Shown here: positions 9,519 to 56,791 of the stretch, piece by piece
Position numbering within the stretch: the stretch's first letter is position 1
Layout of the letters: each line of letters starts with the position of its first letter
Source of the DNA: Anaerolineales bacterium
GTDB taxonomy: Bacteria > Chloroflexota > Anaerolineae > Anaerolineales > UBA11579
DNA length: 64,000 nt
Reading direction: 5' to 3'
Assembly (NCBI GenBank): GCA_040902265.1
Contig: JBBDXQ010000108.1
Coordinates: 1,706-65,705, forward strand
Made by a program: the position numbers and the translations under genes
Notes under the pieces: generated by a model
Told to the model about the DNA's origin: nothing
The model's input: only the letters and a program-made list of their open reading frames with translations
Databases searched by the model: none

Positions 9519-9522
9519 ACAG

Positions 9523-19321: not shown

Positions 19322-19328
19322 TTTCATT

Positions 19329-19346
19329 GCGCCTCTTAAGAGGCGC
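19329..19346. promoter_or_regulatory. perfect 18-nt palindrome/hairpin (GCGCCTCTT|AAGAGGCGC) covering the SD-like AAGAGG of the radical-SAM gene
   Basis: Read directly: gcgcctcttaagaggcgc, followed by tcttattATG (ATG 19354). The right arm contains AAGAGG 10 nt upstream of the ATG. Confidence 0.5.
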
Positions 19347-19353
19347 TCTTATT

Positions 19354-29988: not shown

Positions 29989-30954
29989 GTGATGATGGTT
30001 GAGAACCAGTATTGGAATGGTAAACGAGTGACGGTAACCGGCGGGGGAGGCTTTCTGGGCTCTTTTATCGTCGAAAATTTGCGCGCCAGAGGTGCGAAGG
30101 AGATCTTCGTGCCACGTCGCAGGGATTATGACCTGGTGCAGACGGGCGAGATCAGCCGAATGCTGGACGCAGCTAACGCTGACGTGATCATTCATGCGGC
30201 TGCCCTGGCAGGTGGTATCGGCGTCAACCGGGAGCGACCGGCTGATTTTTTCTACACTAACTTGATGATGGGCGCTCCTTTGATGCACCAAGCATGGGAA
30301 CGCGGCGTGAAGAAGTTTGTCGCCCTCGGGACCATTTGCTCGTATCCCAAGTTCGCTCCAATACCATTTCGTGAAGAAGACCTTTGGGAAGGCTACCCGG
30401 AAGAGACCAATGCTCCTTACGGCCTGGCCAAAAAAATGCTGCTGGTGCAGGCCCAGGCTTATCGCCAGCAATATGGCTTCAATGCCATCTTCCTTTTACC
30501 AGTTAACCTCTACGGGCCTCGTGACAATTTTGACTTGGAAACGTCGCATGTGATTCCGGCTCTCATCCACAAATTTATTGAAGCTGAAGAACGGAAGGAT
30601 AAGCAGGTAGAACTTTGGGGCGATGGATCGCCAACCCGCGAATTCCTCTATGTGGAAGACGCCGCTGAGGGGGTGGTATTGGCCGCCGAACGCTTTGAAG
30701 GTAGTGAACCGGTAAACCTTGGGTCTGGCCGCGAGATCAGCATTAAAGACCTGGCTGAGATGATTGCTCGCCTTATCGGTTACGAAGGCGAGTTTGTTTG
30801 GAATACAGATAAGCCTAACGGCCAACCACGCCGCTTACTGGATGTGAGTCGCGCAGAGTCCTTCTTCGGATTCCGCGCGGGCACGGACTTCGAAGAAGGA
30901 TTGCGTAAAACCATCGAGTGGTATCGCCAGCATCGGAAAGTTGCCATCAAATGA
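29989..30954 (+). CDS. fcl: GDP-L-fucose synthase family (GDP-4-keto-6-deoxymannose 3,5-epimerase/4-reductase)
   Basis: 321-aa ORF, collinear with E. coli Fcl/WcaG as I recall it: '[12 protein letters not shown]', '[11 protein letters not shown]', '[26 protein letters not shown]', '[15 protein letters not shown]', '[14 protein letters not shown]'. Confidence 0.85.
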
Positions 30955-31817
30955 TCGATAGCAAAGCCTTGGCCGCGAAAGTAGAAGCGCCTACTGTGCT
31001 TATCAAACCGCAGCGCGGCTTGGTGGGTCTCGATTTACGTGAGCTGTTTCGCTTCCGTGAACTGATCTTTTTCCTCACCTGGCGGGATATTTTGGTGCGT
31101 TACAAGCAGACTTTGCTTGGCGGTACCTGGGCGATCGTGCAACCACTATTGCAAATGCTTATATTTAATGTGTTATTTGGTGACATTGCCGGGTTATCCA
31201 GCGGCGGCATCCCGCGTCCACTGTTTACCTATTCCGCCCTGCTTCCCTGGAACCTGTTCTCTACCGCTATTGGTGAAGCCGGACGTTCTCTGGTAACCAA
31301 TCGCAGTATGATCACCAAAGTCTACTTCCCGCGCGTGGTGGTGCCCCTGTCTTCGGTGCTTAGCGGCGTGGTGGACTTTGCGGTGGCTTTCGTCGTGCTG
31401 GCTGGGATGATGCTTTATTTCGGCGTCATGCCTACATCGGGGATTTGGGGCTTGCCATTTTATTTGTTGCTTTCGTTGGTAACCGCCCTGGGTGTAGGTC
31501 TTTGGCTCGCGGCGTTGAATGTGCATTACCGCGATGTGCGTCACATCATCCCCTTTCTAACCCAGTTCTGGATGCTCGCCACCCCTATTGCTTATGAAGC
31601 CAGCGAGATCTTTGAGCGCTTGCCGCAAGGACTTGAATGGCTTTATGCGTTAAATCCCATGGTGGGTGTGGTTGAAGGCTTTCGCAATGCCCTGGTGGGT
31701 ACACCGATCTTCTCTGCCGGTATGTTGTGGATCTCACTGATCACTTCATTCGTACTGCTTCTCACCGGTCTGATTTATTTCCGCCGAATGGAACGCACCT
31801 TTGCGGATGTCGTATAG
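30951..31817 (+). CDS. wzm: ABC-2-type polysaccharide export permease
   Basis: ATG 30951 forms an ATGA overlap with fcl. '[36 protein letters not shown]' is the ABC-2 signature start. Six hydrophobic segments. Confidence 0.8.
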
Positions 31818-31818
31818 C

Positions 31819-33102
31819 ATGAGCGAATACGCAATCAACGTCGAGGGGTTGGGCAAACGCTATCGCTTGGGTGGCAAGGTGGAGCGCTACCGCACATTGC
31901 GCGACTCGCTCAGCAGCGCGTTTTCATGGCCTGCGCGCATGTTAAAAGGCGAGCTGCGCCGAGGCGCGGAGACCATCTGGGCGTTGCGGGATATCTCTTT
32001 CCAAGTGCGCCAGGGGCAAGTGCTGGGTGTGATCGGTCGCAATGGCGCGGGAAAAAGCACGCTGTTGAAGATCCTCTCGCGGGTCACTGAACCCACCACT
32101 GGCTTTGCTGAAATCCATGGTCGGGTTGGGTCTTTGCTCGAAGTCGGCACAGGCTTCCACCCCGAATTAACCGGACGTGAAAATATTTACTTGAATGGCG
32201 CAGTTTTGGGAATGAAGCGCCGAGAAATTGCTGGCAAGTTCGATGAGATCGTGGATTTTTCCGGGGTTGCAAAATTCATCGATACAGCTGTGAAACATTA
32301 TTCCAGTGGCATGTACCTGCGCCTGGCATTTTCGGTAGCCGCCCACCTGGAGCCCGAGATACTAGTCGTGGATGAAGTACTGGCGGTCGGTGATGCTGAG
32401 TTCCAGCGCAAATGCCTTGGCAAGATGAGCGATGTGGCCGAGGCTGGCCGCACCGTGCTTTTTGTCAGCCACAACATGTCGGCTATATTACGCCTCACGG
32501 AAGAGTCGATCGTTTTGGAAAAAGGGGAGTTGGTTTTTCGAGCACCCACACGCCAGGCGGTTGACCACTATATGGCCTCCGGTCTTTCGCAGAGTGGCGA
32601 ACGGATTTGGCAGGCAAATGAAATACCTACTGACGCTGCCCCCTTTAAACCATTAGCCTTGCGCGTGCGCGATACCCAGGGAAGGGTGGTAGAAACAGTC
32701 CAGTCCCGCCAGCCGCTGGAAATTGAGATTGAATACGAAGTAGACAAACCGATTCAGGGATTGCGAGTAGGCGTTTATTTACAAACTATGCGCGGCGAAA
32801 CTGTGCTCACTTCGTTCGATACGGACGAGCCAGTCCAATATGAAAAATACGCCACGCGGCCTGCTGGCCGCTACCTCAGCCGCGCTGAAATACCCGCTGA
32901 CTTCCTTAACGAAGGACAGTACGTGCTTGGATTGAACGCGTCCTCCTTCCGTGTGCGTCGTTATTTTCAGGAAGAACGCGCCTTGGCGTTCGTGGTGGAT
33001 GCCATGGGAGCGCCTGGCATGCAATGGCCGGAACCACGTCAAGGGTTCGTTCGACCGAGGCTTGATTGGCGTATTGAACAAGTCCAAAGAGTCAAAGCTT
33101 AA
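31819..33102 (+). CDS. wzt: polysaccharide-export ABC ATPase with a C-terminal glycan-binding-type domain
   Basis: Walker A 'GRNGAGKSTLLKIL', signature 'YSSGMYLRLAFSVA', Walker B 'ILVVDEVLAVGD'. A further ~180 aa are beta-rich ('PLEIEIEYEVDKPIQGLRVGVYL...GQYVLGLNA'), like Wzt C-terminal carbohydrate-binding domains. Start is 31819, with 31801 or 31807 as alternatives. Confidence 0.85.
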   Translation: MSEYAINVEGLGKRYRLGGKVERYRTLRDSLSSAFSWPARMLKGELRRGAETIWALRDISFQVRQGQVLGVIGRNGAGKSTLLKILSRVTEPTTGFAEIHGRVGSLLEVGTGFHPELTGRENIYLNGAVLGMKRREIAGKFDEIVDFSGVAKFIDTAVKHYSSGMYLRLAFSVAAHLEPEILVVDEVLAVGDAEFQRKCLGKMSDVAEAGRTVLFVSHNMSAILRLTEESIVLEKGELVFRAPTRQAVDHYMASGLSQSGERIWQANEIPTDAAPFKPLALRVRDTQGRVVETVQSRQPLEIEIEYEVDKPIQGLRVGVYLQTMRGETVLTSFDTDEPVQYEKYATRPAGRYLSRAEIPADFLNEGQYVLGLNASSFRVRRYFQEERALAFVVDAMGAPGMQWPEPRQGFVRPRLDWRIEQVQRVKA

Positions 33103-33103
33103 G

Positions 33104-34693
33104 ATGCTGGCCGGGACAAGGATTAAACGTGTATTGGGCGAAGTGCCGCTGGCTGCCGAGCTGGACTGGGCGTTGCGTGGCCGCGGGGCACCGGTGGACG
33201 GTTTCAAGTTGGAGGAATTAAAGGCCTCTTTGCCTAACTGGTGCCGGCAAGTTAAAGACTCGCCTTTGCGCGACCAAAAGGGTTGCAAGGCGTTGGTATA
33301 TGCCACTCTCCACTATTGGATTAACCACGCTGCTCTGCTTTCCCTGGCGTTGGTAGGACAGGGTCATGAAACCACCCTGGCTTATTCGCCCTACGCTAAC
33401 TGGAAGAAGGCGATTACCAAGTTTGACCTGCGGCAGCGTGACGCTTACGCGCGCAAGGTGCTGAAACCGGCTGAGGAACTTATTAGTATTAAATCATTTT
33501 TGGCACCTGCCGATCGGCCTCTGCCCAGTTCACTGGCCGATGCGATCGAATCCGTGTCGATCATGGATGCGCAATACACCCTTCAAGTGGAGGAAGTGGA
33601 CAAGGGTAGTAACTTGTTTCAGCTCCGCCTGGAACGCAACAAAGCTGCTGCGGCTGCTGCCTTGACTTGGCTGCAGGCTGAAAGCCCGGACGTAGTCATC
33701 TTGCCCAATGGGCTGATCCTGGAATTTGGCGCGGTATTCTATGCAGCCCGCCACCTCAACATCCCGGTTGTCAGTTACGAATTCGGCGAGCAGCACGACC
33801 GTATTTGGCTTGCTCGAAATACCTCTGTTATGCATCAGGAGACTGAGGTCCTCTGGCGGGCAAAACAGGATGCGACCTTTGGCACGGAGCAACGTGCCCA
33901 GGTGCAGAAGTTATTCACCAGCCGTCAGGCAGCTGGGCTCTTCGGCTCGTTCTATCGCCGTTGGCAGAACCTTCCGGCTGAGGGTGCCGATGTGGTACGC
34001 TCTAAGTTGGGTTTAGACCACCGCCCGGTGGTCTTGCTGGCAGCCAATGTGATCGGTGATAGCCTTACGTTGGGGCGCGCTTCCTTCACAGGCGATATGA
34101 GTACCTGGCTGCAGCGCACGCTGGTCTTTTTCGCCGAACGCAAGGACGTGCAGTTCGTGCTGCGCGTCCATCCTGGAGAGCGCAACTTGCAAGGCCCTTC
34201 GGTGGCCGAGCTCGTTCACCAAGTGCTTGCTGAATTGCCCAACCACTTCCATGTGGTTGCAGCTGAGGATTCGATCAATACCTACGACTTAATTGCACTA
34301 GCTGACCTCGGCCTGGTCTACACCACCACAGTAGGTTTAGAAATGGCGATGAGCGGTTTGCCCGTCATCGTTGCAGGCCGAACCCACTACCGTGGCAAAG
34401 GTTTTACACTTGACCCCGCAAACTGGGAAGATTACTTTTCGGGACTGGAAGAAGCTCTACAGGATTTAGCAGCGGCAAAACTAAACCCGCACCAGATCGA
34501 CACAGCCTGGAGTTACGCCTACCGTTTCTTCTTCGATTATCCTCAACCCTTCCCCTGGCACCTATTGCATTTCTGGAAGGATGTTGAAACAACACCGTTA
34601 AGTAGCGTATTTTCGGAGCTGGGACAAAGCCAATTTGTTCGCACGTTTGATTATTTAGTGGGTCGCCCTTTCCCCTGGGAGAATCTGCAATGA
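33104..34693 (+). CDS. GT-B-like protein, capsule-synthesis (KpsC/KpsS, GT107-like) layout; paralogue of 54937-56526
   Basis: ATG 33104 lies 1 nt after the wzt stop; the track ORF's 51 upstream codons overlap wzt. 'VVLLAANVIGDSLT', 'VQFVLRVHPGE', 'LIALADLGLVYTTTVGLEMAMSGLPVIVAGRTHY' are collinear with 'VPVFTNVIFDTSQ', 'LFVIRAHPDE', 'LIQRAHFVMVYNSSIGLEASIMNKPVLCAGAARY' in the 54937 ORF. Confidence 0.5.
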   Translation: MLAGTRIKRVLGEVPLAAELDWALRGRGAPVDGFKLEELKASLPNWCRQVKDSPLRDQKGCKALVYATLHYWINHAALLSLALVGQGHETTLAYSPYANWKKAITKFDLRQRDAYARKVLKPAEELISIKSFLAPADRPLPSSLADAIESVSIMDAQYTLQVEEVDKGSNLFQLRLERNKAAAAAALTWLQAESPDVVILPNGLILEFGAVFYAARHLNIPVVSYEFGEQHDRIWLARNTSVMHQETEVLWRAKQDATFGTEQRAQVQKLFTSRQAAGLFGSFYRRWQNLPAEGADVVRSKLGLDHRPVVLLAANVIGDSLTLGRASFTGDMSTWLQRTLVFFAERKDVQFVLRVHPGERNLQGPSVAELVHQVLAELPNHFHVVAAEDSINTYDLIALADLGLVYTTTVGLEMAMSGLPVIVAGRTHYRGKGFTLDPANWEDYFSGLEEALQDLAAAKLNPHQIDTAWSYAYRFFFDYPQPFPWHLLHFWKDVETTPLSSVFSELGQSQFVRTFDYLVGRPFPWENLQ

Positions 34694-35550
34694 TCGACAG
34701 CGATCGCGATATCAAGCGACAGGTCCGTGAGTTTTATGATCGGGTTGGTTGGAAGGAGGTCTCCGAAGGTGTGTTCCAGAATGCGCGCTACGAAGACCTG
34801 CGTCCTGTTTCGCAGGAATATATCCATCGCTGCCACCAACGTGTGGCCCGCCACCTGGCTTCCAAAGGGCGCTTTTTTTTGGACGCTGGGTCGGGTCCCA
34901 TCCAGTATCCCGAATACATCGAATATTCAAAGGGGTACGATAAACGCGTATGTGCAGATGTTTCACACACCGCGCTGAAGGCTGCTCGCCAGCGCGTTGG
35001 TGACCATGGTTTGTTCGTCGTTGCTGATATTTCCAACTTACCTTTTTCCAGCGATGTCTTTGAGGGCATTGTCTCACTGCACACAATTCATCACTTGCCA
35101 CAAAACCAGCACGTGACAGCCTACGAGGAATTGCACAGAGTGTTGGCGAAGGGGTGCACCGCAGTGGTGGTCAATGGTTGGGATCATTCCCGCATGATGG
35201 GTTTTTTCAATCGCATCAAGCGTGTCATCCTGCGTACGCGCCATAGACGTTTTGGCCGAAAGCGCGGTATGTATGCCAACACAGCAGCTACCGCTTCACA
35301 GGAGGGGATTAAGGGAACATTCGTCGAGAAACACGATCCGGGCTGGTTAAAGCTGGCTCTGAACGGGCGCTTTGAGTATCGCGTCTTGGTCTGGCGCAGC
35401 GCCGGCACCAATTTCTTGCGCTTCTTTATTCGCGAGCGTTGGTTTGGTAGATATTTCCTGCGGTTACTCTTCCGACTGGAAGAACTCTTCCCACGATATT
35501 TTGGGGAAGTGGGCCGCTATCCCATGCTAGTGGTTACCAAGGCGAAATGA
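34690..35550 (+). CDS. class I SAM-dependent methyltransferase
   Basis: 286-aa ORF with an ATGA overlap. 'FFLDAGSGPIQYPEY', 'RVCADVSHTALKAARQR', 'FEGIVSLHTIHHL'. Confidence 0.7.
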   Translation: MIDSDRDIKRQVREFYDRVGWKEVSEGVFQNARYEDLRPVSQEYIHRCHQRVARHLASKGRFFLDAGSGPIQYPEYIEYSKGYDKRVCADVSHTALKAARQRVGDHGLFVVADISNLPFSSDVFEGIVSLHTIHHLPQNQHVTAYEELHRVLAKGCTAVVVNGWDHSRMMGFFNRIKRVILRTRHRRFGRKRGMYANTAATASQEGIKGTFVEKHDPGWLKLALNGRFEYRVLVWRSAGTNFLRFFIRERWFGRYFLRLLFRLEELFPRYFGEVGRYPMLVVTKAK

Positions 35551-36443
35551 ACCTGTTGGATTGGGAACTAAAAAGGAAGCGTGGTTTGGGCCACCTGTTC
35601 CGCAAAGCCACTTTGGCTCCTTGGCGGGCATGGCGGCGCTCCACCGCGTTCGCCCGCGCCCTTCCAAATTTCCTCATCATCGGAGCGCAGAAAGCTGGCA
35701 CCACCTCGCTTTACGGGTATTTGTCCCAGCATCACAATGTAATGTCACCCATGAAAAAAGAGATTCGTTACTTCGGCGAGAACTATTTCCAGGGTCCCAA
35801 TTGGTATCGGGCTCATTTTCCGTTCTCATTCAGGTTGGCTAATGGAAAAATGATTACCGGGGAATCTAGCCCTACGACCATTTTCCATCCGCTCGCCCAC
35901 GAGTGGGTGGCGGCTACAATACCCTCGGTTAAGCTGATCGCTTTGTTACGCGATCCAGTGGCGCGTGCTTTTTCTCATCACCAGATGAACTTGCGCTCGG
36001 GCCGCGATCAATTGCCTTTTGAGGTCGCCATCCAGAGAGAGGCCGAGCGGTTGGATGGCGCCTTGGAAGGCGTTCTAAATGGTGATGATGAAGCTGTGTT
36101 TCGCTATACCAGTTTCTCTTATTTGGCACGTGGGGACTATGAAACCCAACTGAAACGTTGGGTCCGCGTCTTTCCGAAAGAACAACTATTAATACTACAG
36201 AGTGAAGAATTATTTCAAAACCCTGCCCAGGCTTATCGTCGTGTCTTGGCCTTTCTTGGGCTTTCAATGATTGAATTACCAAGCTACGATGCGTTTAATC
36301 CTGGCCGATACGATGGGGAGATCCCACAAAAAAGCCGTAGTTTCCTGACGGAGTATTTTCGCGAGCCCAATCAACGCCTGGCCGAATTGCTGGGACAGGA
36401 TTTCAACTGGCAGCCCGCCGCCAGTCTTGTGGAGGTCTTATGA
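35547..36443 (+). CDS. PAPS-dependent sulfotransferase
   Basis: 298-aa ORF with an ATGA overlap. 5'-PSB loop 'FLIIGAQKAGTTSLYGYL', 'KEIRYF', and the 3'-PB region 'LIALLRDPVARAFSHHQM' give a carbohydrate-sulfotransferase-type layout. Confidence 0.85.
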   Translation: MNLLDWELKRKRGLGHLFRKATLAPWRAWRRSTAFARALPNFLIIGAQKAGTTSLYGYLSQHHNVMSPMKKEIRYFGENYFQGPNWYRAHFPFSFRLANGKMITGESSPTTIFHPLAHEWVAATIPSVKLIALLRDPVARAFSHHQMNLRSGRDQLPFEVAIQREAERLDGALEGVLNGDDEAVFRYTSFSYLARGDYETQLKRWVRVFPKEQLLILQSEELFQNPAQAYRRVLAFLGLSMIELPSYDAFNPGRYDGEIPQKSRSFLTEYFREPNQRLAELLGQDFNWQPAASLVEVL

Positions 36444-37447
36444 ATTGGAAAGAACAGGTTGTGCTCGTTACCGGAGGAACAGGTTCTTTCGGCAGGGAAT
36501 GCATTCGCATCTTGTTGGATGAATACAAACCCTCAAAGGTGATTGTCTTCAGCCGTGACGAGCTGAAGCAGCATGAAATGCGCGCAATGGGGTTCGACCA
36601 AGTCAATCTGCGCTACTTTATCGGTGACGTTCGTGACCTTGGCCGTTTGAAGCGCGCTATGGTTGGGGTGGATGTGGTATTACATGCCGCCGCCCTCAAA
36701 CAGGTGCCGGCATGCGAATACAACCCGATGGAAGCCATCAAGACTAATATTCTCGGCACGGCCAATGTGATCGAAGCCGCACTGGAAGCTGGTGTCAGCA
36801 AGGTGTTGGCGCTCAGCACCGACAAGGCAGTCAGCCCCGTGAACCTGTATGGCGCCACCAAACTGGCAGCGGAGAAGCTGACTGTGCAAAGCAACGCGTA
36901 TTCTGGCGATCAGCCCACGCGCTTCAGCTGCGTACGTTATGGCAACGTTATTGGCAGCCGCGGCTCGGTGGTGCCCATCTTCCTGCGCCAACGCGAAAAC
37001 GGTAAATTGAATATTACCGACAAACGTATGACCCGCTTTTGGCTTTCACTCGATCAAGGTGTCCGATTTGTGCTCAACTGCGTCGAGGTCATGCATGGCG
37101 GGGAAGTGTTTGTGCCCAAGTTGCCCAGCACCTCGATCTTGGAACTTGCCAAAGTTATTGCTCCCCTGGCCGAACTGGAAGAGATCGGCATTCGCCCTGG
37201 GGAAAAACTACACGAGGTGTTGATCTCAGAGGACGAAGCGCGCACCGCCGTCGAATTGAAGGACATGTACGTGATCCAGCCGGCGCTGGGACCTTGGTTT
37301 GTGCGCTCCTGGGATCAGAAAGGCAAATCTCTGCCCGATGGTTTTTATTATGCTAGCAACGAAAACCCACAAAAGTTAAACCCGGCGGAAATACTAAAAA
37401 TGGTAGCTCCCTATGAAGCCGAATTAAAAGCAGGCAATCTGGCGTGA
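36440..37447 (+). CDS. pseB: UDP-N-acetylglucosamine 4,6-dehydratase (inverting), PseB type
   Basis: 335-aa ORF, collinear with Campylobacter/Helicobacter PseB: 'VLVTGGTGSFG', 'VFSRDELKQHEMR', 'YFIGDVRD', 'HAAALKQVPACEYNPMEAIKTNILGT', 'LSTDKAVSPVNLYGATKLAAEKL', 'RYGNVIGSRGSVVP', 'MTRFWLSL', 'HGGEVFVPKLPS'. Confidence 0.9.
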   Translation: MNWKEQVVLVTGGTGSFGRECIRILLDEYKPSKVIVFSRDELKQHEMRAMGFDQVNLRYFIGDVRDLGRLKRAMVGVDVVLHAAALKQVPACEYNPMEAIKTNILGTANVIEAALEAGVSKVLALSTDKAVSPVNLYGATKLAAEKLTVQSNAYSGDQPTRFSCVRYGNVIGSRGSVVPIFLRQRENGKLNITDKRMTRFWLSLDQGVRFVLNCVEVMHGGEVFVPKLPSTSILELAKVIAPLAELEEIGIRPGEKLHEVLISEDEARTAVELKDMYVIQPALGPWFVRSWDQKGKSLPDGFYYASNENPQKLNPAEILKMVAPYEAELKAGNLA

Positions 37448-38382
37448 CGCGCATTCTTATCACCGGAGCTAGCGGGTTGCTCGGTGTCAATTTGGCACTC
37501 GAAGCCGCAAAGCGTTATGAAGTCATTGGGTTGGTGAATACTCAGTCTTTGCACAACCCCGGTTTCCAGACCCTACACACTGATCTACTTGACCTCGAAT
37601 TAATTCCCATGTTAATCGAAGAGACTATGCCCGATTGGGTAATCAATTGTGCCGCGCTGACTGATTTGGACACTTGCGAGCGCCAGCCGGAACTAGCCAA
37701 GCGTCTTAACACTGAGCTGCCTGGCCGCTTGGCTGCAGAAACAGCCAGGCGCAACCTGCGTTTTCTACAGGTTTCGAGCGATGCAGTATTCGATGGTGTT
37801 AAAGGCGATTACCGCGAAGAGGATGCGCCCAATCCACTCAGTACCTACGGGCGCACTAAGCGACTCGCCGAGTTGGCTGTGAAGGCAGCCCACCCGCAGG
37901 TGCTGATAGTGCGCCCCAACATATTTGGCTGGAGCGTGAGCGGCACCCACAGCTTGGCCGAGTTCTTCTTCAACAACCTTTCGACCGGAAAACCGATACA
38001 AGGGTTTACCGATCGGCAATTCTGCCCATTGTGGGTCAACCATCTCGCTGCGATTATGCTTGAATTAATGGAGAAAAATACGCGCGGGTTATTCCACACA
38101 GTCAGTTCCGACGCACTGACCAAGTATGAGTTCGGCGTAGCTATTGCTAATCGGTTTGGCCTGGACGCCGCCATGATCAAACCTACCAGTTCGGAATCTG
38201 GTGATGCGCTGGCGCCTCGTGCCCTCAATTTGAACTTGAAGACCACAAACTTGACCAAAGAACTCGGCCGCCGGCCGCCTAGTGTTGCAGCTGGCATCGA
38301 AGGACTTTTCCAGCAATACGTTACTGGTCACCGCAAACAACTTCGGGCAATGGCGGGTTCACCCGAGGCGATGAAAGGCTAA
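37444..38382 (+). CDS. RmlD-like NAD(P)H-dependent 4-keto-sugar reductase (dTDP-4-dehydrorhamnose reductase family)
   Basis: 312-aa ORF. The GTG start overlaps the pseB stop. 'ILITGASGLLG', 'VINCAALTDLDTCE', 'FLQVSSDAVFDG..GDYREEDAPNPLSTYGRTKRLAE' (S...YxxxK). Confidence 0.75.
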   Translation: MTRILITGASGLLGVNLALEAAKRYEVIGLVNTQSLHNPGFQTLHTDLLDLELIPMLIEETMPDWVINCAALTDLDTCERQPELAKRLNTELPGRLAAETARRNLRFLQVSSDAVFDGVKGDYREEDAPNPLSTYGRTKRLAELAVKAAHPQVLIVRPNIFGWSVSGTHSLAEFFFNNLSTGKPIQGFTDRQFCPLWVNHLAAIMLELMEKNTRGLFHTVSSDALTKYEFGVAIANRFGLDAAMIKPTSSESGDALAPRALNLNLKTTNLTKELGRRPPSVAAGIEGLFQQYVTGHRKQLRAMAGSPEAMKG

Positions 38383-38384
38383 GC

Positions 38385-39449
38385 ATGCAGATCGATATCC
38401 AGGGTAGGCAAGTCGGTATAAAGCATCCGACCTACTTCATTGCCGATATTGCCGCCAATCATGACGGCGACCTTAAACGCGCCGTGGAACTGATCCGCCT
38501 GGCCAAGGTGGCTGGGGCTGATGCGGCCAAGTTTCAAAACTTCCGTGCTCCCAAGATCGTTTCGGATTACGGTTTCAAAGCGCTGGGCGACCAACTCTCA
38601 CACCAGGCCAAGTGGGAAAAAAGTGTTTACGAGGTGTATGAAGACGCTTCGATACCCTTCGAATGGACGCCCACTCTAAAAGAGGCCTGCGATGAGGTTG
38701 GTATCCATTATTTCTCTTCCCCCTACGATTATGAAGCCATCGAAATGCTCGATCATTACGTGGCAGCGTATAAGGCGGGGTCCAGCCTGATATCCTGGCC
38801 GCAAGCCATCGTGCGTATGGCGCGGTTTGGCAAACCTGTCCTGATCGCCACCGGCGACTCAGACATGCTAGACGTTGAACGCGTGATGGCCATGGTGCTG
38901 CCAGTAAATAAGGCAATAGTTCTGATGCAATGCAACACGAACTACACAGCCAGCGAAGGCAATTATGACCACTTGCATCTCAATGTGCTCACGACCTACG
39001 CAACCCGGTGGCCGGGTGTGATCCTGGGCCTTTCCGACCATACCCAAAGCCCAGCACCGGTGGTTGGCGCTGTGGCCTTGGGTGCTCGTGTGATCGAGCG
39101 CCACTTTACCGACAGCAACAGTCGTGAAGGCCCCGACCATAAATTCGCGCTCAACCCGGATAATTGGGCGCACATGGTGGAGGAAGTTCGCATCTTGGAG
39201 CGCTCGCTTGGCTCCTCAGAAAAATTTGTGGCCGAGAATGAAAAAGAGACCTATATCGTCCAACGCCATTGCTTGCGGGCATCCCGGATGGTGAAGGCTG
39301 GGGAAATATTCACCGAAGATATGCTTGAAGTTTTACGGCCGGCTACCCCCGGCGCAATAATGGCCTGGGAGCTATCCCGGGTCCTGGGCAAAAAAGCGAT
39401 GACCGATCTCCCATTTGGTAAGGAACTTCGTTGGGAAGATTTAGACTAA
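38385..39449 (+). CDS. NeuB/PseI/LegI-family nonulosonic-acid synthase with a C-terminal SAF domain
   Basis: 354-aa ORF. 'PTYFIADIAANHDGDLKRAVELIRLAKVAGADAAKFQNF', 'GLSDHT', 'VIERHFT'. C-terminal 'RASRMVKAGEIFTEDMLEVLRP' is SAF/antifreeze-like. Confidence 0.85.
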   Translation: MQIDIQGRQVGIKHPTYFIADIAANHDGDLKRAVELIRLAKVAGADAAKFQNFRAPKIVSDYGFKALGDQLSHQAKWEKSVYEVYEDASIPFEWTPTLKEACDEVGIHYFSSPYDYEAIEMLDHYVAAYKAGSSLISWPQAIVRMARFGKPVLIATGDSDMLDVERVMAMVLPVNKAIVLMQCNTNYTASEGNYDHLHLNVLTTYATRWPGVILGLSDHTQSPAPVVGAVALGARVIERHFTDSNSREGPDHKFALNPDNWAHMVEEVRILERSLGSSEKFVAENEKETYIVQRHCLRASRMVKAGEIFTEDMLEVLRPATPGAIMAWELSRVLGKKAMTDLPFGKELRWEDLD

Positions 39450-39462
39450 CCCTGCCAGCCAA

Positions 39463-40530
39463 ATGAAAATTCTGTATTTCAGTCGCAGCTATACTCCGCA
39501 CGATTTTCGTTTCCTCTCGGCAATCGTTGAAGGCGGCCATCGCGCTTTTTTCCTGCGATCTCAGCATAGTAACTCTTCGCGTATTCCCCCATTACCCAAA
39601 GGCACCGAGGAGGTGGCGTGGTCTGGATTTCTCGAGCCGGTGATCGCGCAAGTAAAACCCGACCTGGTGCACGCTGGGCCGGTGCCGTCCTGCGGCTACT
39701 TGGCTGCCAGAAGCGGGTTCCACCCGCTCGTGCTCATGTCCTGGGGCTCAGACCTTTTGTGGGAGGCGCGCCGGAACCCATTTGTTCGTCTGCGGGCTAA
39801 GTATGCCCTGCCGCGCGCAGACGTTGTCATTGGGGATTGTGACGCAATGCGTAGAGTCGCGATGGATTATGGTGCACACTCCAGTCGTATAGCCGTTTTC
39901 CCATGGGGAGTTGACCTCAAGAGCTTCAATCCCAAGGGTGGCGACGGGGGTTGGCGCGCCCGCCTTGGCTGGCAGCAGAACGTTGTTCTATTACATTTGA
40001 GAACATGGGAACCGCTCTACGATCCCCTCACCGTTGCCAGGGCTTTTGCGCGCGCCGCCCGCCAAGAGCCGCGCCTGCGCCTACTAATGCCCGGCGCTGG
40101 CAGCCTGGCTGGCAAAATTACCAAAGTTTTTGAACAACACCAGGTTTTGGACCGCGTGCATTTTCCAGGCCAGCTAAATCACGACGAGCTTCCGCAGATC
40201 TTCCGGGCGGCTGATCTGTACCTTAGCGCTTCCCTAAGCGACGGTTCCTCTGTCTCTCTGATGGAAGCCTTAGCAAGCGGCCTGCCAGCCTTGGTTTCTG
40301 ATATTCTCGGAAACCGCGAATGGGTGCAGCCTGGTAAAGAAGGCTGGCTCTTCCTCGCAAAGGATGATGTCGTGCTGGCGGACCATATCCTGCGCTCAGT
40401 AGCCCAACCCGATCAGCTTAAGCTTATGGGCGGGTTGGCGCGAAAAACTGCAGAAACTCGCGCCGATTGGGCTCAAAACAAGCAGGCGTTATATAGTGCC
40501 TACCATCTAGCTCTTGAGACAGCAGGCTAG
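39463..40530 (+). CDS. glycosyltransferase, GT4-like
   Basis: 355-aa ORF. 'LSASLSDGSSVSLMEALASGLPALVSDILGNREWVQPGKEGWL'. Confidence 0.75.
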   Translation: MKILYFSRSYTPHDFRFLSAIVEGGHRAFFLRSQHSNSSRIPPLPKGTEEVAWSGFLEPVIAQVKPDLVHAGPVPSCGYLAARSGFHPLVLMSWGSDLLWEARRNPFVRLRAKYALPRADVVIGDCDAMRRVAMDYGAHSSRIAVFPWGVDLKSFNPKGGDGGWRARLGWQQNVVLLHLRTWEPLYDPLTVARAFARAARQEPRLRLLMPGAGSLAGKITKVFEQHQVLDRVHFPGQLNHDELPQIFRAADLYLSASLSDGSSVSLMEALASGLPALVSDILGNREWVQPGKEGWLFLAKDDVVLADHILRSVAQPDQLKLMGGLARKTAETRADWAQNKQALYSAYHLALETAG

Positions 40531-40531
40531 C

Positions 40532-41290
40532 ATGGTGTCCCGAGTGGTTGCCATAATCCAGGCCCGCATGGCATCCAGCCGCCTACCGGGCAAAGTACTG
40601 GCCGATCTGGGCGGCCAGCCCATGCTGGCTTGGGTGGTGCGCCGCGCTAGCCGTGCAAAAGGAATTGACCAGGTGGTAGTGGCCACCTCCATTGCTGCTG
40701 AAGACGATGCAGTGGTTGCCTTTTGCAAAGAACAGGACTATGCCTGTTCTCGCGGCAGCCTTTACGATGTGCTTGACCGCTTTCGGCAAGCTGCCCAGGA
40801 ATTCGATGCTGAAGTCATCGTGCGCCTAACAGGTGACTGCCCGCTGATTGATCCCGGCATGCTCGCTGATAATTTAAACACCTTCCTTAGCGCACAGCCC
40901 CCCTTGGATTTTGCTGCTAATCGTTTGCCGAGTGATCGGACCATCCCCATCGGGTTGGATGCAGAATTCTGCACCATGGCCGCTCTGGAAACTGCCTGGC
41001 GTGAAGCGCAGAAGGAGCATCAGCGTGAGCATGTGATGCCGTTCTTTTACGAGAACGCCGACCGTTTCCGTACCCTCCACATTAAGCACCACCCGAATGT
41101 CGGCAATTATCGCTGGACTGTTGATACGCCCGAAGACCTTGAACTTATGCGCAAAGTTGTCACTTATTTTTCGGACGATACATTTTCGTGGCAACAAGTC
41201 TTGGCCCTGTTTTATCAGCATCCTGACCTTGCCAGGATAAATGCTTCGGTAATGCATAAGAGCCAATACGACGTAGATGAACGCCAATGA
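40532..41290 (+). CDS. cytidylyltransferase of the SpsF/PseF (CTP_transf_3) type: CMP-ulosonic acid synthetase candidate
   Basis: ATG 40532 lies 1 nt after the upstream stop. 'VVAIIQARMASSRLPGKVLADLGGQPMLAWVVRR', 'VVVATS', 'VIVRLTGDCPLIDP'. Confidence 0.75.
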   Translation: MVSRVVAIIQARMASSRLPGKVLADLGGQPMLAWVVRRASRAKGIDQVVVATSIAAEDDAVVAFCKEQDYACSRGSLYDVLDRFRQAAQEFDAEVIVRLTGDCPLIDPGMLADNLNTFLSAQPPLDFAANRLPSDRTIPIGLDAEFCTMAALETAWREAQKEHQREHVMPFFYENADRFRTLHIKHHPNVGNYRWTVDTPEDLELMRKVVTYFSDDTFSWQQVLALFYQHPDLARINASVMHKSQYDVDERQ

Positions 41291-42195
41291 AAAAAATGAC
41301 CATTTTTTCCACCCCCAAACCTTTCGTAGATCCACATATCGTCACTATCCAGCGCAACGCCATCCAGTCTTGGCTGCAGATGGGAACTGATGTGGAAGTG
41401 ATATTAATTGGCGATGAGCATGGTATGGGCCAAGTATCTGCTGAGTTGCAGGTCACTCATCTGAAAGGCGTCAAACAGAATCATCATGGCACGCCTCTAG
41501 TGAGCTCGATCTTTCAGTTGGCGCGCGATAGGGCTCAGGCTGAACTATTGTTATTTGCCAATACTGATATGGTTTTGTTTCCGGAAACGCTTGAGCTTGC
41601 GCTCACGGTAGCACGGCAAAATGACGAATTTGTGCTTCTGGGGCAACGCTATGATTTGGATGTTGCGCACCAGATGGATTTCTCCTTAGGATGGCCAGAG
41701 CGTTTGCGCTCCGAAGTGAAATCCCGCGGTCGCTTGCATCCCCTGGGTGGCAGCGACTATTTCCTGTTTTCACGTCACCTGTACGCGCATATCCCTGATT
41801 TTGCCATTGGCCGCGCTGGTTGGGATAATTGGATGATATATAAAGCGGTAACCCAAAGTTGGCCGACGATCGACGCTACCCGCGATCTGATGGTTATTCA
41901 CCAAAACCATGGCTATGCTCATTTGATCGAGGAAAAAGACCATCAACGCCATCCCGAAACCTTCGCCAACGCTGAACTGGCCGGCGGGATGCGCAGGATG
42001 TATATGCTGCTTGACGTGAGCTACCTGTTGTTGGATGGTGAGATTCGCCGGGCTCCATGGAGCCTGGCCCGTTTCTTGCGCGGCCTGGAACGCTGGTTGC
42101 AGCCAAACGAATTGGTTGGCCGCGGCCCGCGCTGGCTTTTATTGCGCCAGGTACGCCGCCTGCGGCGAGCCCTGACACATTCGGAGGGACATTAA
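41287..42195 (+). CDS. hypothetical protein (possible GT-A-like fold)
   Basis: 302-aa ORF with an ATGA overlap. 'IFSTPKPFVDPHIVTIQRNAIQSWLQ', 'LLFANTDMVLF', 'GGSDYFLFSR'. Coding is supported by operon coupling and the length of the frame; function not recognised. Confidence 0.45.
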   Translation: MKKMTIFSTPKPFVDPHIVTIQRNAIQSWLQMGTDVEVILIGDEHGMGQVSAELQVTHLKGVKQNHHGTPLVSSIFQLARDRAQAELLLFANTDMVLFPETLELALTVARQNDEFVLLGQRYDLDVAHQMDFSLGWPERLRSEVKSRGRLHPLGGSDYFLFSRHLYAHIPDFAIGRAGWDNWMIYKAVTQSWPTIDATRDLMVIHQNHGYAHLIEEKDHQRHPETFANAELAGGMRRMYMLLDVSYLLLDGEIRRAPWSLARFLRGLERWLQPNELVGRGPRWLLLRQVRRLRRALTHSEGH

Positions 42196-43170
42196 ATGCG
42201 TGTGGGTCAAAACCCGATTAAGTCAGTAGGGAGTGTTGAGCCACCAGCCCTGGTTACTGTGGTGGTGTTCAGCTCCATCCCCTTCCTTAGCGGCTATTTC
42301 TCCGAGAGTTTGGATGTTCTCAAACTTTGTCTATCCAGTCTACGTCGGAATACACGCGGAGAATTCGATTTGATGCTCTTTGATAATGGTAGTTGTGCCG
42401 CGGTTCGCAAGTACCTAATCGCTGAGCAAGACAAGAATCGCATTCAATTTCTAATCCTATCCGCGCGTAATATCGGCAAACCGGCGGCCTGGAACGCAGC
42501 CCTTACCGCGGCTCCCGGCGAATATGTCGCATATGCCGATAGCGACGTCTATTTCAATCCAGGTTGGTTGAAGGCTAGCCTGGATACGTTGAAAGCCTTC
42601 CCCAAAGCCGGCATGGTGACCGCCATGCCTATGCTCATCCCCGAAACATATTCCACGGCGACAGTTAAATGGGCAAAAAAGAACCCTGAGATCAAGCTGG
42701 AACGTGGCCATTTGCTGCCTTGGGAGGATTTCTGGCGGCATGCCCGTAGCCTGGGTGACACCGAGCAGCAAGCCCGAGCCTTTTACCAAGCAAACCCGAT
42801 AGTGAGAATCACATACAAAAAGAAACGTTTCTTTGCCGGAGCAGCCCACTTCCAGTTCACTGCCAGGAAAACAGTCCTTCAGCGTGTGTTACCTATTCCT
42901 GCTGAGAAACCCATGGGTAGAGTGCGTTTACTGGATGAGGCGATCAACGCCGCTGGATACTTACGGCTTTGTACCGAGGACTGGCATGTCCAACACATGG
43001 GGAATTTGTTGCCTCAAGCTTCCGATTTGATCAGTCCTGTACAAGTTCCTGTCCAACGCGCCAAAAACCGCGGCAAAATTGCGAAAATCTGGCGCTGGGA
43101 GCCGATTCGCAAGCTATTGCAATGGATCTACGGCTGGAGTTTCGATCGCCTGCACCGTGGCGGATCGTGA
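42196..43170 (+). CDS. GT2-like glycosyltransferase
   Basis: 324-aa ORF abutting the upstream stop. 'VTVVVFSSIPFLSGYFSESLDVLKLCLSSLRRNT..LMLFDNGS', 'YADSDVYF'. Confidence 0.6.
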   Translation: MRVGQNPIKSVGSVEPPALVTVVVFSSIPFLSGYFSESLDVLKLCLSSLRRNTRGEFDLMLFDNGSCAAVRKYLIAEQDKNRIQFLILSARNIGKPAAWNAALTAAPGEYVAYADSDVYFNPGWLKASLDTLKAFPKAGMVTAMPMLIPETYSTATVKWAKKNPEIKLERGHLLPWEDFWRHARSLGDTEQQARAFYQANPIVRITYKKKRFFAGAAHFQFTARKTVLQRVLPIPAEKPMGRVRLLDEAINAAGYLRLCTEDWHVQHMGNLLPQASDLISPVQVPVQRAKNRGKIAKIWRWEPIRKLLQWIYGWSFDRLHRGGS

Positions 43171-44606
43171 TGGCTAAGCATCGCATTTTCATTAGCGCAG
43201 ATCATGGTCTGGCGATAGTATATTTTCTGCAAAGCGACGTACTTACTACTTTACTTGTAGATGATGTAGAAGTTGTGCTGCTCACCGACGACGCCCTTGC
43301 CGATCACATCCGCGAGCGATTTGGCCGGCCAGGCCTGACTATTGAGGGCCTTCGTTTATCGAAGGCCCAGGATTATTTCAAACAGGTTTCCCCTTCGCGC
43401 CAGTGGTGGCTGGATTTCTTGCGTCGTGCCGGTGCCTCCAACCAAATCAACCTCGAGGCAGTGGAAAGCTATGTCTCCCAGGTGAAAGCGGAAGCCAACC
43501 CCCGCCGCAAGCTGTTCTTCCCCTTGATGCAACTAGTGGTGGCCGTGTTGCGCCGCTCGCGCCAGGCGCGGTCGGCTTTGCTGGGTGCCCAGATGCGCTT
43601 CACTCCTAACCTCTACGCAGATCTCTTCGAAAAGTATCAGCCCGGCCTGGTAGTAGCCAGCACACCTGGCTGGCGTTTTGATCGATACCTTCTGCGTGAA
43701 GCCAATGCTCGCAATATCCCCACCGCTTCGGTAATTGTCGGTTGGGATAACAGCAGCAGTTATAGCTTGCCGGGCGCTCCCGTGGATTGGGTCACTTGCT
43801 GGTCGCAGATCCAAAAAGAAGAGCTGGAACATGGTTCCGACTGGTCTGCAGAGCGTGTCAATATCGGCGGTATCCCCATTTACGATGGCTATTTCAAAAA
43901 TGAATGGGTATTGTCCCGCGACCAATATTTCAAACAACATGGCCTGGACCCTAACCGGAAATTGATCTCATACGCCAGTAGCTTTATCACCTTTTCTCCC
44001 AATATTCAAAATATAGAAGCGCTTGCCGAATTAGTTTCCAGTAACAAACTAGCCGCGCCTAGCCAATTGCTGGTGCGTTTGCACCCCAACCATTTTATGG
44101 ATGTGCATCGCTTTGCTGCCGAGCGCGAAAAGATCCGCACCTTGGCCGAAAAGCTGCCACATGTTAACGTCGTCGAACCTGTGCCCCTAGGAGGCTCTTT
44201 GGGCTATTATTCGGGCGAGGACATGCCCGAGAAATCTTCGATGATGGCTTATTCTGATGTGTTTGTCACTGTCTATTCCACCATGGTGGTGGAAGCCGCT
44301 GTTCACCAGCGGCCGGTGGTGAGCGCTTGCATTGATTCAATTGTGGGGTGGCCTGGGAAATTCACCATACCGCTTTCACGCATCGGCGATTGGCCTACTC
44401 ATTCTCGTTTCCGCAATTCGGGAGCCGGCCGTGTCGTCTATACCAAGGCGGAGTTAGCAGACACCATAAATTTTTATCTGATCAATCCGCAAGCCGGGAA
44501 GGAAGAGCGCCGCGCTTTCATTGAGCGCGAATGTACTTTCACGGAGGGCAGCGCTGGCCGGCGCACCGGTGAATATCTGCTCTCCCGAATAGGGAAACGC
44601 GCATGA
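43170..44606 (+). CDS. GT-B-like polysaccharide biosynthesis protein of unknown specificity (distantly similar layout to 33104/54937)
   Basis: ATG 43170 shares 1 nt with the upstream TGA; the track ORF's 67 upstream codons overlap the GT2 gene. 'LISYASSF', 'LLVRLHPNHF', 'MAYSDVFVTVYSTMVVEAAVHQRPVVSA'. Confidence 0.45.
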   Translation: MAKHRIFISADHGLAIVYFLQSDVLTTLLVDDVEVVLLTDDALADHIRERFGRPGLTIEGLRLSKAQDYFKQVSPSRQWWLDFLRRAGASNQINLEAVESYVSQVKAEANPRRKLFFPLMQLVVAVLRRSRQARSALLGAQMRFTPNLYADLFEKYQPGLVVASTPGWRFDRYLLREANARNIPTASVIVGWDNSSSYSLPGAPVDWVTCWSQIQKEELEHGSDWSAERVNIGGIPIYDGYFKNEWVLSRDQYFKQHGLDPNRKLISYASSFITFSPNIQNIEALAELVSSNKLAAPSQLLVRLHPNHFMDVHRFAAEREKIRTLAEKLPHVNVVEPVPLGGSLGYYSGEDMPEKSSMMAYSDVFVTVYSTMVVEAAVHQRPVVSACIDSIVGWPGKFTIPLSRIGDWPTHSRFRNSGAGRVVYTKAELADTINFYLINPQAGKEERRAFIERECTFTEGSAGRRTGEYLLSRIGKRA

Positions 44607-50195: not shown

Positions 50196-51953
<1,758 letters not shown>

Positions 51954-51956
51954 TTA

Positions 51957-51974
51957 GGGGCAGAGATCTGCCCC
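51957..51974 (+). promoter_or_regulatory. intercistronic GC hairpin (GGGGCAGA-ga-TCTGCCCC) with no U-tract
   Basis: Read directly, between the sat-cysC stop (51953) and the SDR start (51980). Confidence 0.3.
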
Positions 51975-51979
51975 GACAA

Positions 51980-54905: not shown

Positions 54906-54936
54906 CGCATGAGCGTCCAGCGGGCGCACAGTTAAC

Positions 54937-56533: not shown

Positions 56534-56791
56534 ATGGTCTCAAAAACAGAGGAGAGCGGTCTGTTGGAGGAATTGCGCAGCCTGATGGCTGAAATTTTCC
56601 ATGTGGACGCAGACCAGATCGGTGTTGAAGCTCAATTGGGTGAATTGCCGCAATGGGATTCCTTGACGCATATGGACTTAATGGTTGCGCTTGAATCGGC
56701 TTTTGGTATAGAGATCACTGCTGAAACTATTAGCCAGCTCACCAGCCTTCCGTCAATCTGGGCTTACATTCAAAGTCAGCAGCATGCCTGA
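56534..56791 (+). CDS. acyl/aminoacyl carrier protein
   Basis: 85-aa ORF. 'LGELPQWDSLTHMDLMVALESAFGIEI' is a DSL phosphopantetheine-attachment context in a four-helix ACP-sized protein. Confidence 0.75.
   Translation: MVSKTEESGLLEELRSLMAEIFHVDADQIGVEAQLGELPQWDSLTHMDLMVALESAFGIEITAETISQLTSLPSIWAYIQSQQHA

Follow-up and report, generated by a model that had tools for sequence, protein, structure and literature searches.

Organization of the five-gene module

Most of the 64-kb window examined here (the whole stretch of 64,000 nucleotides from contig JBBDXQ010000108.1 of an Anaerolineales bacterium, Chloroflexota, assembly GCA_040902265.1) is taken up by a glycan locus on the plus strand. Positions 36440-41290 hold the five genes that are the subject of this study, which encode a PseB dehydratase, an RmlD-like reductase, a nonulosonic acid synthase of the NeuB family, a GT4 protein and a cytidylyltransferase. 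An earlier reading of the DNA letters (the original prediction) had placed them there, and their positions were confirmed by the list of open reading frames (ORFs) together with Pfam and NCBIfam; the Pfam scan covered 57 long ORFs across the window and the NCBIfam scan 30 of those 57.

36440..37447, plus strand: PseB, the 5-inverting 4,6-dehydratase of uridine diphosphate (UDP)-N-acetylglucosamine (UDP-GlcNAc); TIGR03589, 466.1 bits against a cut-off of 407.75; Polysacc_synt_2, 328.6 bits
37444..38382, plus strand: putative RmlD-family NAD(P)H 4-ketoreductase; RmlD_sub_bind (PF04321), 200.8 bits
38385..39449, plus strand: NeuB-family nonulosonate synthase with a SAF domain; Pfam NeuB (PF03102), 205.7 bits
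39463..40530, plus strand: GT4 (GT-B fold) protein; Glycos_transf_1, 77 bits, plus Glyco_transf_4
40532..41290, plus strand: SpsF-like cytidylyltransferase; CTP_transf_3, 123.7 bits

The translational coupling claimed for these genes is evident from their junctions, all of which are overlaps or gaps of 1-13 nucleotides. As read from the sequence, an upstream sulfotransferase gene overlaps the PseB gene by ATGA, and the latter overlaps the reductase gene by GTGA. The reductase and synthase genes are separated by 2 nucleotides, the synthase and GT4 genes by 13, and the GT4 and cytidylyltransferase genes by 1 if the ATG at 40532 is the start of the last gene, which in turn overlaps the gene of a 302-amino-acid protein by ATGA. 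This ATG is more likely to be the start than the listed TTG at 40514; it is the start in the gene call on an identical Logan contig and agrees with the junction sequence.

Families and conserved residues of the encoded proteins

The first protein had been described as a very clear PseB, and it does exceed the equivalog cut-off; the FnlA profile TIGR04130 gives it 244.4 bits against a cut-off of 730. A dehydratase of the PseB type should bring about no epimerisation at C3, so that the product would be altro, not rhamno or talo. The family of the second protein is likewise as predicted: its RmlD_sub_bind domain carries intact GxxGxxG, S-S/T-D and YxxxK motifs, which are kept in five orthologues from the related cassettes described below. 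It reaches 182.4 bits on the rmlD equivalog TIGR01214, under the cut-off of 224.05, and its best matches in the PDB include archaeal RmlD (116 bits) and human MAT2B (111 bits), both above bacterial RmlD. Scanning the window with Pfam brought up no RmlA, RmlB or RmlC family.

The synthase has the predicted architecture of NeuB and SAF domains but misses both NCBIfam equivalog cut-offs (NeuB_NnaB, 245.5 against 399.65; PseI, 223.8 against 340.25), and in phmmer comparisons it is about equidistant from PseI (8h2c, 152 bits), NeuB (1xuu, 143 bits) and SpsE (1vli, 143 bits). Its phylogenetic placement, which had been proposed as a check, was run by neighbour joining; in the resulting tree, which is without support values, the window synthase, other Anaerolineales sequences and a Firmicutes-type family form one clade, with 8h2c, 1xuu and 1vli outside. 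The catalytic and metal columns K53, Q55, K129, S132, Y186, H215, E234, H236 and D247 (Neisseria meningitidis NeuB numbering) are all kept. Also kept is R314 of the SAF domain, which we take to contact the N-acetyl group in the 1XUZ structure of N. meningitidis NeuB, and a 2-acetamido sugar is therefore the expected substrate. The clade has a signature of its own, E25D, S154A, N184T and I185N, giving the motif QCNTNY, and it has Gly or Ser where PseI has Phe and SpsE has Tyr. Both this position and position 184 are treated as pathway-discriminating in published work (PMC7371886).

The GT4-like protein of the original prediction is confirmed as such by its two Pfam domains. Its best matches in the PDB are GtfA/Gtf1, BshA, MshA and TarM, presumably all UDP-GlcNAc-using GT4 enzymes. 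The cytidylyltransferase, predicted to be of the SpsF/PseF type, keeps the SpsF part of that description through its CTP_transf_3 domain; the PseF part fails, the PseF equivalog giving 39.7 bits where 205.7 would be needed. Its N-terminus is similar to KdsB.

Pfam and NCBIfam find no PseC, PseH, PseG or NeuC in the module, and no NeuC, LegG, PseC, PseH or PseG in the window. This leaves PseB and the reductase as the sole candidates there for providing the synthase with its substrate. None of the ORFs scanned matches PseG or Glyco_tran_28_C at E ≤ 1e-3 and none has a PseG- or NeuC-like domain, so that the remark that no PseG-type hydrolase is recognisable holds good. The same scans find no UDP-sugar 2-epimerase (Epimerase_2 domain) in the window.

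A conserved cassette in Chloroflexota and beyond

Scanning the GTDB species genomes with a profile made from a seven-sequence synthase alignment gave at least 600 pattern matches, at least 579 of which were confirmed as synthase relatives; the best 80 of these 579 or more are all from Chloroflexota, at 65-85% identity. Gene neighbourhoods were counted in the 62 Chloroflexota species loci with enough flanking sequence. The reductase is directly followed by the synthase in 60 of them, the run PseB-reductase-synthase is present in 56, and the synthase is followed by GT4 in 58. GT4 is followed directly by the cytidylyltransferase in 26 loci, and in 29 (L013, L017 and L122, for example) the module holds GT4, an AAC(3)-like acetyltransferase, a DUF4910 protein and the cytidylyltransferase. 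The surroundings are conserved as well, in the order Wzm, Wzt with a Wzt_C domain, Capsule_synth-like protein, methyltransferase, module, 302-amino-acid protein, GT2, TagF-like protein, sulfotransferase and GFO oxidoreductase. The five-gene set is a conserved cassette rather than a local oddity; because it is conserved in dozens of independent genomes, its arrangement is far beyond chance.

Outside Chloroflexota, an exhaustive protein search revealed a graded synthase clade at 40-55% identity, scoring above the generic NeuB relatives. When 20 distant representatives were looked up in their clusters, the names obtained were Lysinibacillus, a gammaproteobacterium and Bacteroidales. The Lysinibacillus synthase (WP_036123328.1), 52% identical to that of the window, is encoded in a flagellin glycosylation island with the order flagellin, Maf, DUF8042, PseB (545 bits), CTP_transf_3, RmlD-like protein and synthase, followed by a PseH-like GNAT, a methyltransferase, a Glyco_trans_1_2 protein, FlaG and FliD; there is no aminotransferase within 10 kb. 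The window PseB, reductase and cytidylyltransferase are 59.5%, 32% and 38% identical, respectively, to their counterparts in this cassette. Paenibacillus lutimineralis has flagellin, DUF8042, Maf, PseB, a short-chain dehydrogenase/reductase (SDR), the RmlD-like protein, synthase, GNAT, an aldo-keto reductase (AKR), another SDR and CTP_transf_3. A Neisseriaceae metagenome-assembled genome has a set of five genes (PseB, RmlD-like, synthase, GNAT, CTP_transf_3), and an unassigned contig has PseB, CTP_transf_3, RmlD-like protein and synthase. Among the matches listed, the family at 61-86% identity to the Lysinibacillus synthase includes many Bacillales, Lachnospiraceae and two methanogens (Methanomethylovorans and Methanolobus).

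We also examined 80 metagenome loci and counted adjacency in the 53 with at least 900 base pairs upstream of the synthase. The reductase lies directly upstream in 43 of these (33 by script and 10 with overlapping stop-to-stop ORFs), and of the 11 loci that extend for at least 3 kb in either direction, 9 include PseB.

The flagellin islands bear on the question of what the synthase is fed with. Maf proteins are described in published abstracts as flagellin nonulosonic-acid transferases, so that islands carrying Maf need a nonulosonate donor, and in those of Lysinibacillus and Paenibacillus no sugar-modifying enzymes other than PseB and the reductase could supply the synthase. Directly 3' of the synthase, Firmicutes-type cassettes have the PseH-like GNAT (68.8 bits on the PseH profile, against a cut-off of 93.1), where the window has GT4 instead.

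Comparison with known systems

A close published parallel is found in Fusobacterium nucleatum ATCC 25586, in which FN1683 is annotated as a GNAT, FN1684 as NeuB with SAF, FN1685 as a dTDP-4-dehydrorhamnose reductase and FN1686 as NeuB/CTP_transf_3 (PMC4045943, Table 4). That operon has no NeuC, and its authors read it as one for Neu5Ac synthesis (PMC4045943). Compared by published domain annotation only, its domain set and order are those of the Firmicutes-type cassette. According to a title cited in PMC7371886, the O-antigen of this strain contains N-acetyl-6-deoxy-L-altrosamine (6-deoxy-L-AltNAc) and a 5-amino-3,5,9-trideoxy-nonulosonic acid; the passage concerned, which cites Vinogradov et al., has one trideoxy nonulosonate as known. 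These sugars are exactly those expected from PseB, a 4-reductase and a synthase. The F. nucleatum system differs from that of the window in that the neighbour of its synthase is a GNAT and not GT4, and in that its nonulosonate carries an acetimidoyl group on N5. No Fusobacterium protein was among the best 120 matches to the Lysinibacillus and Neisseriaceae synthases. Our literature search retrieved no paper that links the FN operon to the trideoxy sugar or assigns genes to any trideoxy nonulosonate, and nothing on nonulosonates in Anaerolineae or on Lysinibacillus flagellin.

The cytidine monophosphate (CMP)-pseudaminic acid pathway of Campylobacter jejuni and Helicobacter pylori (PseB, PseC, PseH, PseG, PseI, PseF) has the same first enzyme, the PseB equivalog, the same overall course from UDP-GlcNAc through a 6-deoxy-L-altro hexose to condensation with phosphoenolpyruvate (PEP) and CMP activation, and a synthase of the same NeuB and SAF fold. 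However, the window is without PseC, PseH and PseG and has the RmlD-family reductase in the place after PseB, its synthase and cytidylyltransferase fail the PseI and PseF cut-offs, the synthase falling in a clade of its own, and the predicted product would bear a hydroxyl group at C7 in contrast to the acetamido group of pseudaminic acid.

WbvB/WbvR/WbvD of Vibrio cholerae O37 and FnlA/B/C are said to provide routes to UDP-L-RhaNAc, UDP-L-QuiNAc and UDP-L-FucNAc. These too have a UDP-GlcNAc 4,6-dehydratase followed by a 4-ketoreductase, WbvR being reportedly RmlD-like; the window set differs in that its dehydratase is of the PseB type, it is without a 2-epimerase and its reductase is joined to a nonulosonate synthase. 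As for the legionaminic acid genes (sps) of Bacillus subtilis (PMC7439481), sources annotate the window synthase and cytidylyltransferase as SpsE- and SpsF-like. Both systems serve non-lipopolysaccharide surface glycans of monoderm-type bacteria. The window synthase, however, is not nearer to SpsE than to NeuB or PseI, and the sps route is said to use in addition an aminotransferase (SpsC), an acetyltransferase (SpsD) and a hydrolase-like protein (SpsG).

A predicted route to a 7-hydroxy nonulosonate

On these comparisons the likeliest view of the cassette is that it encodes a variant of the pseudaminic-type pathway, widespread but uncharacterised by experiment, with a 4-ketoreductase in place of the enzymes for amination and acetylation. 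More specifically, we hold with moderate confidence that the module and the flanking transferases constitute a self-contained pathway to CMP-5-acetamido-3,5,9-trideoxy-non-2-ulosonic acid, a sugar similar to pseudaminic acid that would have a hydroxyl group at C7 in place of the second amino group.

In the first step, PseB would act on UDP-GlcNAc as a 5-inverting 4,6-dehydratase, as its family and the established enzymology of PseB indicate. The RmlD-like SDR would then reduce C4 to give UDP-6-deoxy-L-AltNAc, the 4-hydroxy analogue of the pseudaminic acid precursor, provided that it follows the stereochemistry of RmlD. A Fischer-projection derivation gives 6-deoxy-L-AltNAc for an RmlD-type reduction of the L-arabino-4-ulose, and the C5-C7 configuration of an L-gluco nonulosonate for the L-altro hexose. 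UDP would be released in a third step, for which the leading candidate enzyme is the GT4 protein encoded directly 3' of the synthase; it may be a UDP-6-deoxy-L-AltNAc hydrolase, that is, an analogue of PseG, or a 6-deoxy-L-AltNAc transferase. The synthase, judging from its catalytic residues and the putative N-acetyl-binding Arg, would condense the free 2-acetamido hexose with PEP, and the SpsF-like enzyme would make the CMP-sugar. Finally, Capsule_synth- and TagF-like proteins encoded around the module would add the sugar to a methylated, sulfated glycan for export by Wzm/Wzt, a step suggested by the gene context.

The original prediction had left two options, a QuiNAc/RhaNAc-type route of the WbvB/WbvR kind independent of the synthase, and a 4-hydroxy hexose that feeds the synthase, the product being a mono-amino 9-deoxy nonulosonate with a 7-hydroxy group. 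Comparison between genomes speaks for the second, which is the best explanation because the cassette is conserved, its synthases form a distinct clade, and the annotation of F. nucleatum agrees with the sugars of that strain. It is further supported by the protein families and intact active sites, and by the lack of any other supplier in the window, where the second NeuB (described below) has a supply route of its own. The first finds no support as worded; a weaker version of it, in which UDP-6-deoxy-L-AltNAc also serves as a direct donor for GT4, could apply, possibly together with nonulosonate synthesis.

Several observations weigh against the 7-hydroxy product. The tree that sets the synthases apart carries no support values, and the likeness to F. 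nucleatum is one of published annotation. No UDP-sugar hydrolase is recognisable in the window scans, and the candidate for this role has no orthologue in the Lysinibacillus cassette, GT4 not being kept in Firmicutes-type cassettes; what lies 3' of the synthase is GT4 in Chloroflexota and a PseH-like GNAT in Firmicutes, Neisseriaceae and, by annotation, F. nucleatum, and the two are unrelated. The PseH-like GNAT hints at an amine substrate in these latter cassettes, and in the Lysinibacillus island it occurs with no aminotransferase nearby. The window itself has a DegT aminotransferase at 8403 and an AAC(3)-like N-acetyltransferase at 58442. In addition, a minority of related cassettes have a divergent DegT or a CTP_transf_3-Aminotran_3 fusion and nevertheless keep the reductase, so that the latter does not in every case simply stand in for an aminotransferase.

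Alternative explanations

These last points would suit a product that is a usual, or almost usual, 5,7-diamino nonulosonate like pseudaminic or fusaminic acid, made with an aminotransferase encoded elsewhere, be it the DegT at 8403 or one outside the window, or by late oxidation and transamination, the RmlD-like protein being otherwise employed. The aminotransferases of related cassettes, which usually lie beside AKR, SDR or GFO oxidoreductases, the GNAT that follows the Firmicutes-type synthases, and the presence in the window of a GFO oxidoreductase (45459) besides the DegT and AAC(3)-like proteins are all in keeping with such a product, and a PseC located away from the Pse cluster has been predicted in Clostridium beijerinckii (PMC13317340). 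We nevertheless consider a diamino sugar rather unlikely. Only 1 of the 62 Chloroflexota loci has any DegT within ~10 kb. The cassette-associated DegTs are far from PseC (194-227 bits on TIGR03588, against a cut-off of 423.5) and are not PseC equivalogs; they are 49-66% identical to a Bacteroidales DegT found beside a synthase without PseB or reductase. The substrate-site columns of the synthases are identical with or without an aminotransferase nearby, and the aminotransferase-linked synthases do not group together. Moreover, a diamino product would leave the reductase, the most conserved partner of the synthase, without a job. Sequence comparison fits better with cassette DegTs that aminate after the synthase step, or aminate something else, than with a PseC-like step.

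The DegT at 8403, the only one in the window, was considered as the PseC of this pathway and rejected: it scores 274.8 bits on the PseC profile, under the same cut-off of 423.5, falls under the LegC cut-off too, shares only 28-36% identity with the DegTs of the cassettes, and belongs to a type of gene that is found near a single Chloroflexota locus of the 62. It lies among glycosyltransferase genes 28 kb upstream of the module, coupled to an S-adenosylmethionine (SAM) methyltransferase gene (8403-10290), and the pair is probably a separate branch for an N-methylated amino sugar.

We give little credence to the possibility that PseB and the reductase only make UDP-6-deoxy-L-AltNAc as a donor for GT4, with the synthase using an unrelated sugar from elsewhere. 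It would suit the presence in the module of a GT4 whose nearest solved relatives presumably use UDP-GlcNAc, the lack of a recognisable hydrolase in the window scans, and the occurrence of 6-deoxy-L-AltNAc itself in the F. nucleatum 25586 O-antigen, going by the title mentioned above. Yet the adjacency of reductase and synthase persists without GT4, in the Maf-containing flagellin islands, the five-gene Neisseriaceae set and the metagenome loci generally; the 64 kb lack NeuC, LegG and any other source of substrate for this enzyme's partner, the synthase; and R314, if its role is as we presume, calls for a 2-acetamido sugar. In its literal WbvB/WbvR form this explanation is rejected, the dehydratase being a PseB equivalog and not of the FnlA/WbvB type (244 against 730 on the FnlA profile) and a 2-epimerase being absent from the window.

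It is very unlikely that the RmlD-like protein acts on the nine-carbon sugar, whether by reducing a 7-keto group or by epimerising C4, or that it binds NADP as a non-catalytic partner of the synthase in the manner of MAT2B/MAT2A. In favour of such roles, MAT2B scores about as well as archaeal RmlD, the genes of reductase and synthase are closely coupled in all the lineages, and stereochemical bookkeeping has fusaminic (gluco) and pseudaminic (manno) acids differing at C4. Against them, the full S/T-Y-K triad and dinucleotide motif are kept, a 7-keto reductase would lead to the same product as the pathway proposed above, and to our knowledge there is no precedent for either role in the RmlD-like family.

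Aminotransferases that accompany the wider synthase clade were seen in two forms. One DegT family, far under the PseC cut-off, travels with such synthases (L091 of Bacteroidales, L094, L108, L116, L158 and L164); at L091, which has no PseB or reductase, it adjoins the gene of a WaaA-like transferase of 3-deoxy-D-manno-oct-2-ulosonic acid (Kdo). Its frequent pairing with an AKR suggests oxidation and transamination at the ulosonate level. The other form is a fusion of CTP_transf_3 with a class-III Aminotran_3 domain, of ~685 amino acids, found beside clade synthases at L090, L097, L103, L113, L117, L119, L154, L172 and L173.

Flanking genes with probable roles in export, transfer and tailoring

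The genes on either side of the module, and a pair located 17 kb downstream of it, are as follows.

30918-31817, plus strand: Wzm permease; ABC2_membrane
31801-33102, plus strand: Wzt ATPase with a Wzt_C carbohydrate-binding domain; ABC_tran, Wzt_C
32951..34693, plus strand: Kps1, a Capsule_synth (KpsC/KpsS-like) protein; PF05159, 27 bits against a cut-off of 20; BFO_1060, 31.5 bits
34690-35550, plus strand: SAM methyltransferase; Methyltransf_11
35547-36443, plus strand: sulfotransferase; Sulfotransfer_1
41287..42195, plus strand: 302-amino-acid protein with no family assigned; no Pfam, NCBIfam or PDB match
42196-43170, plus strand: GT2; Glycos_transf_2; kept in related loci
42969-44606 (ORF), plus strand: TagF-like/BFO_1060-like protein; Glyphos_transf, 27 bits; BFO_1060, 35 bits; kept in related loci
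58442-59221, plus strand: AAC(3)-like N-acetyltransferase; Pfam/NCBIfam
59223-60539, plus strand: DUF4910/DUF2172/M28-like protein; Pfam/NCBIfam

The true starts of Kps1 and of the TagF-like protein are probably near 33100 and 43170, respectively. A Kps1-type gene lies upstream of the module in 55 of the 62 Chloroflexota loci; in most related loci the methyltransferase gene is kept between Kps1 and PseB, and the 302-amino-acid protein gene follows that of the cytidylyltransferase. The methyltransferase, sulfotransferase and PseB genes are joined by ATGA overlaps at both junctions, and the first two are probable tailoring enzymes. The AAC(3)-like and DUF4910 proteins, too, are probable tailoring enzymes of the nonulosonate, and may remodel its N-acyl group.

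BFO_1060 is a homologue of the pseudaminic/legionaminic acid transferases of Tannerella forsythia (PMC5420450). Kps1 and a further protein of the window, Kps2 (54937), both pass the Pfam Capsule_synth threshold, and the matches to the BFO_1060 family are weak in Kps1 (31.5 bits), the TagF-like protein (35 bits) and Kps2 (37.8 bits). These matches make it plausible that CMP-nonulosonate transferases flank the module, Kps1 being one candidate and the TagF-like protein a second candidate nonulosonate transferase or polymerase. PDB sequence searches with Kps1, the TagF-like protein and the 302-amino-acid protein gave nothing significant, the best match being to KpsC at E = 0.066.

Wzm and Wzt, from their context, would be the ATP-binding cassette exporter of the glycan. 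The location of the module close behind these two genes, and the analogy of beta-Kdo-capped O-antigens, suggest that the nonulosonate may be a chain-terminating cap that Wzt recognises for export.

In nearly all related loci, Wzm and Wzt with its Wzt_C domain are followed by a Capsule_synth-like gene and the nonulosonate module.

Implications

A bolder proposal, which we consider rather unlikely, joins these elements. Anaerolineales, many Firmicutes flagella and some methanogens would display an unassigned class of 7-hydroxy-9-deoxy nonulosonates made by the PseB/RmlD-like/NeuB-clade/SpsF-like cassette; the GT4 of Chloroflexota would be a new UDP-6-deoxy-L-AltNAc hydrolase; the methylated or sulfated nonulosonate would be a cap or repeat read by Wzt_C; and cassettes with aminotransferases would turn this hydroxy precursor into fusaminic-type diamino sugars through oxidation and transamination at a late stage, which would be a second route to such sugars, independent of PseC.

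How phages, lectins and immune receptors recognise a bacterial surface is shaped by its nonulosonic acids. Prediction from genomes at present distinguishes neuraminic, legionaminic and pseudaminic types only, to which the cassette would add a fourth, genome-predictable type. Such a sugar would be no curiosity: more than 500 species genomes of Chloroflexota have the cassette, as do many islands for flagellin glycosylation. If the proposed pathway is correct, genes would also be assigned to the single known trideoxy nonulosonate, that of F. nucleatum, a species associated with colorectal cancer whose lipopolysaccharide binds Siglec-7. Lysinibacillus, Paenibacillus and Anaerolinea thermophila are culturable organisms for tests, and the cassette would offer a short enzyme set for the chemoenzymatic synthesis of 7-hydroxy analogues of pseudaminic acid.

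Other features of the glycan locus

A second ulosonate module, independent of the first, occupies positions 50196-56526. Its components, as assigned by Pfam and NCBIfam, are as follows.

From 50196: fused ATP sulfurylase/adenosine 5'-phosphosulfate kinase (3'-phosphoadenosine 5'-phosphosulfate (PAPS) synthase), then an SDR
A PseF-like cytidylyltransferase fused to a KdsC-family phosphatase; KdsC, 112.5 against 106.95
54033: NeuB of 290 amino acids without SAF
54937: Kps2, Capsule_synth/BFO_1060-like

This module looks like a route of the Kdn-9-P or Neu-9-P type, and its NeuB has its own supply route (the KdsC-type phosphatase), cytidylyltransferase domain and Capsule_synth-like protein. A third CTP_transf_3 is found at the window edge (63234-63917), with a weak PseF match of 47.9 bits, and a further ulosonate pathway may continue beyond 63917.

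Directly upstream of the AAC(3)-like/DUF4910 pair, positions 56784-58440 encode a class-II aminoacyl-tRNA-synthetase-like protein, accompanied by a small GNAT at 57952. The former is similar to amino acid-[acyl-carrier-protein] ligases (170 bits, with the cut-off at 357), the latter scores 21.2 bits on the PseH profile against a cut-off of 93.1, and together they hint at the aminoacyl decoration of a sugar.

Four sulfotransferase genes (35547, 44603, 60542 and 61396) are present in this one Chloroflexota glycan locus along with the PAPS synthase gene at 50196, and such a number with a dedicated PAPS synthase implies a heavily sulfated surface polymer. Finally, a gene resembling those of B12-binding radical SAM methyltransferases (19327-20838) is located among the glycosyltransferase genes of the locus.

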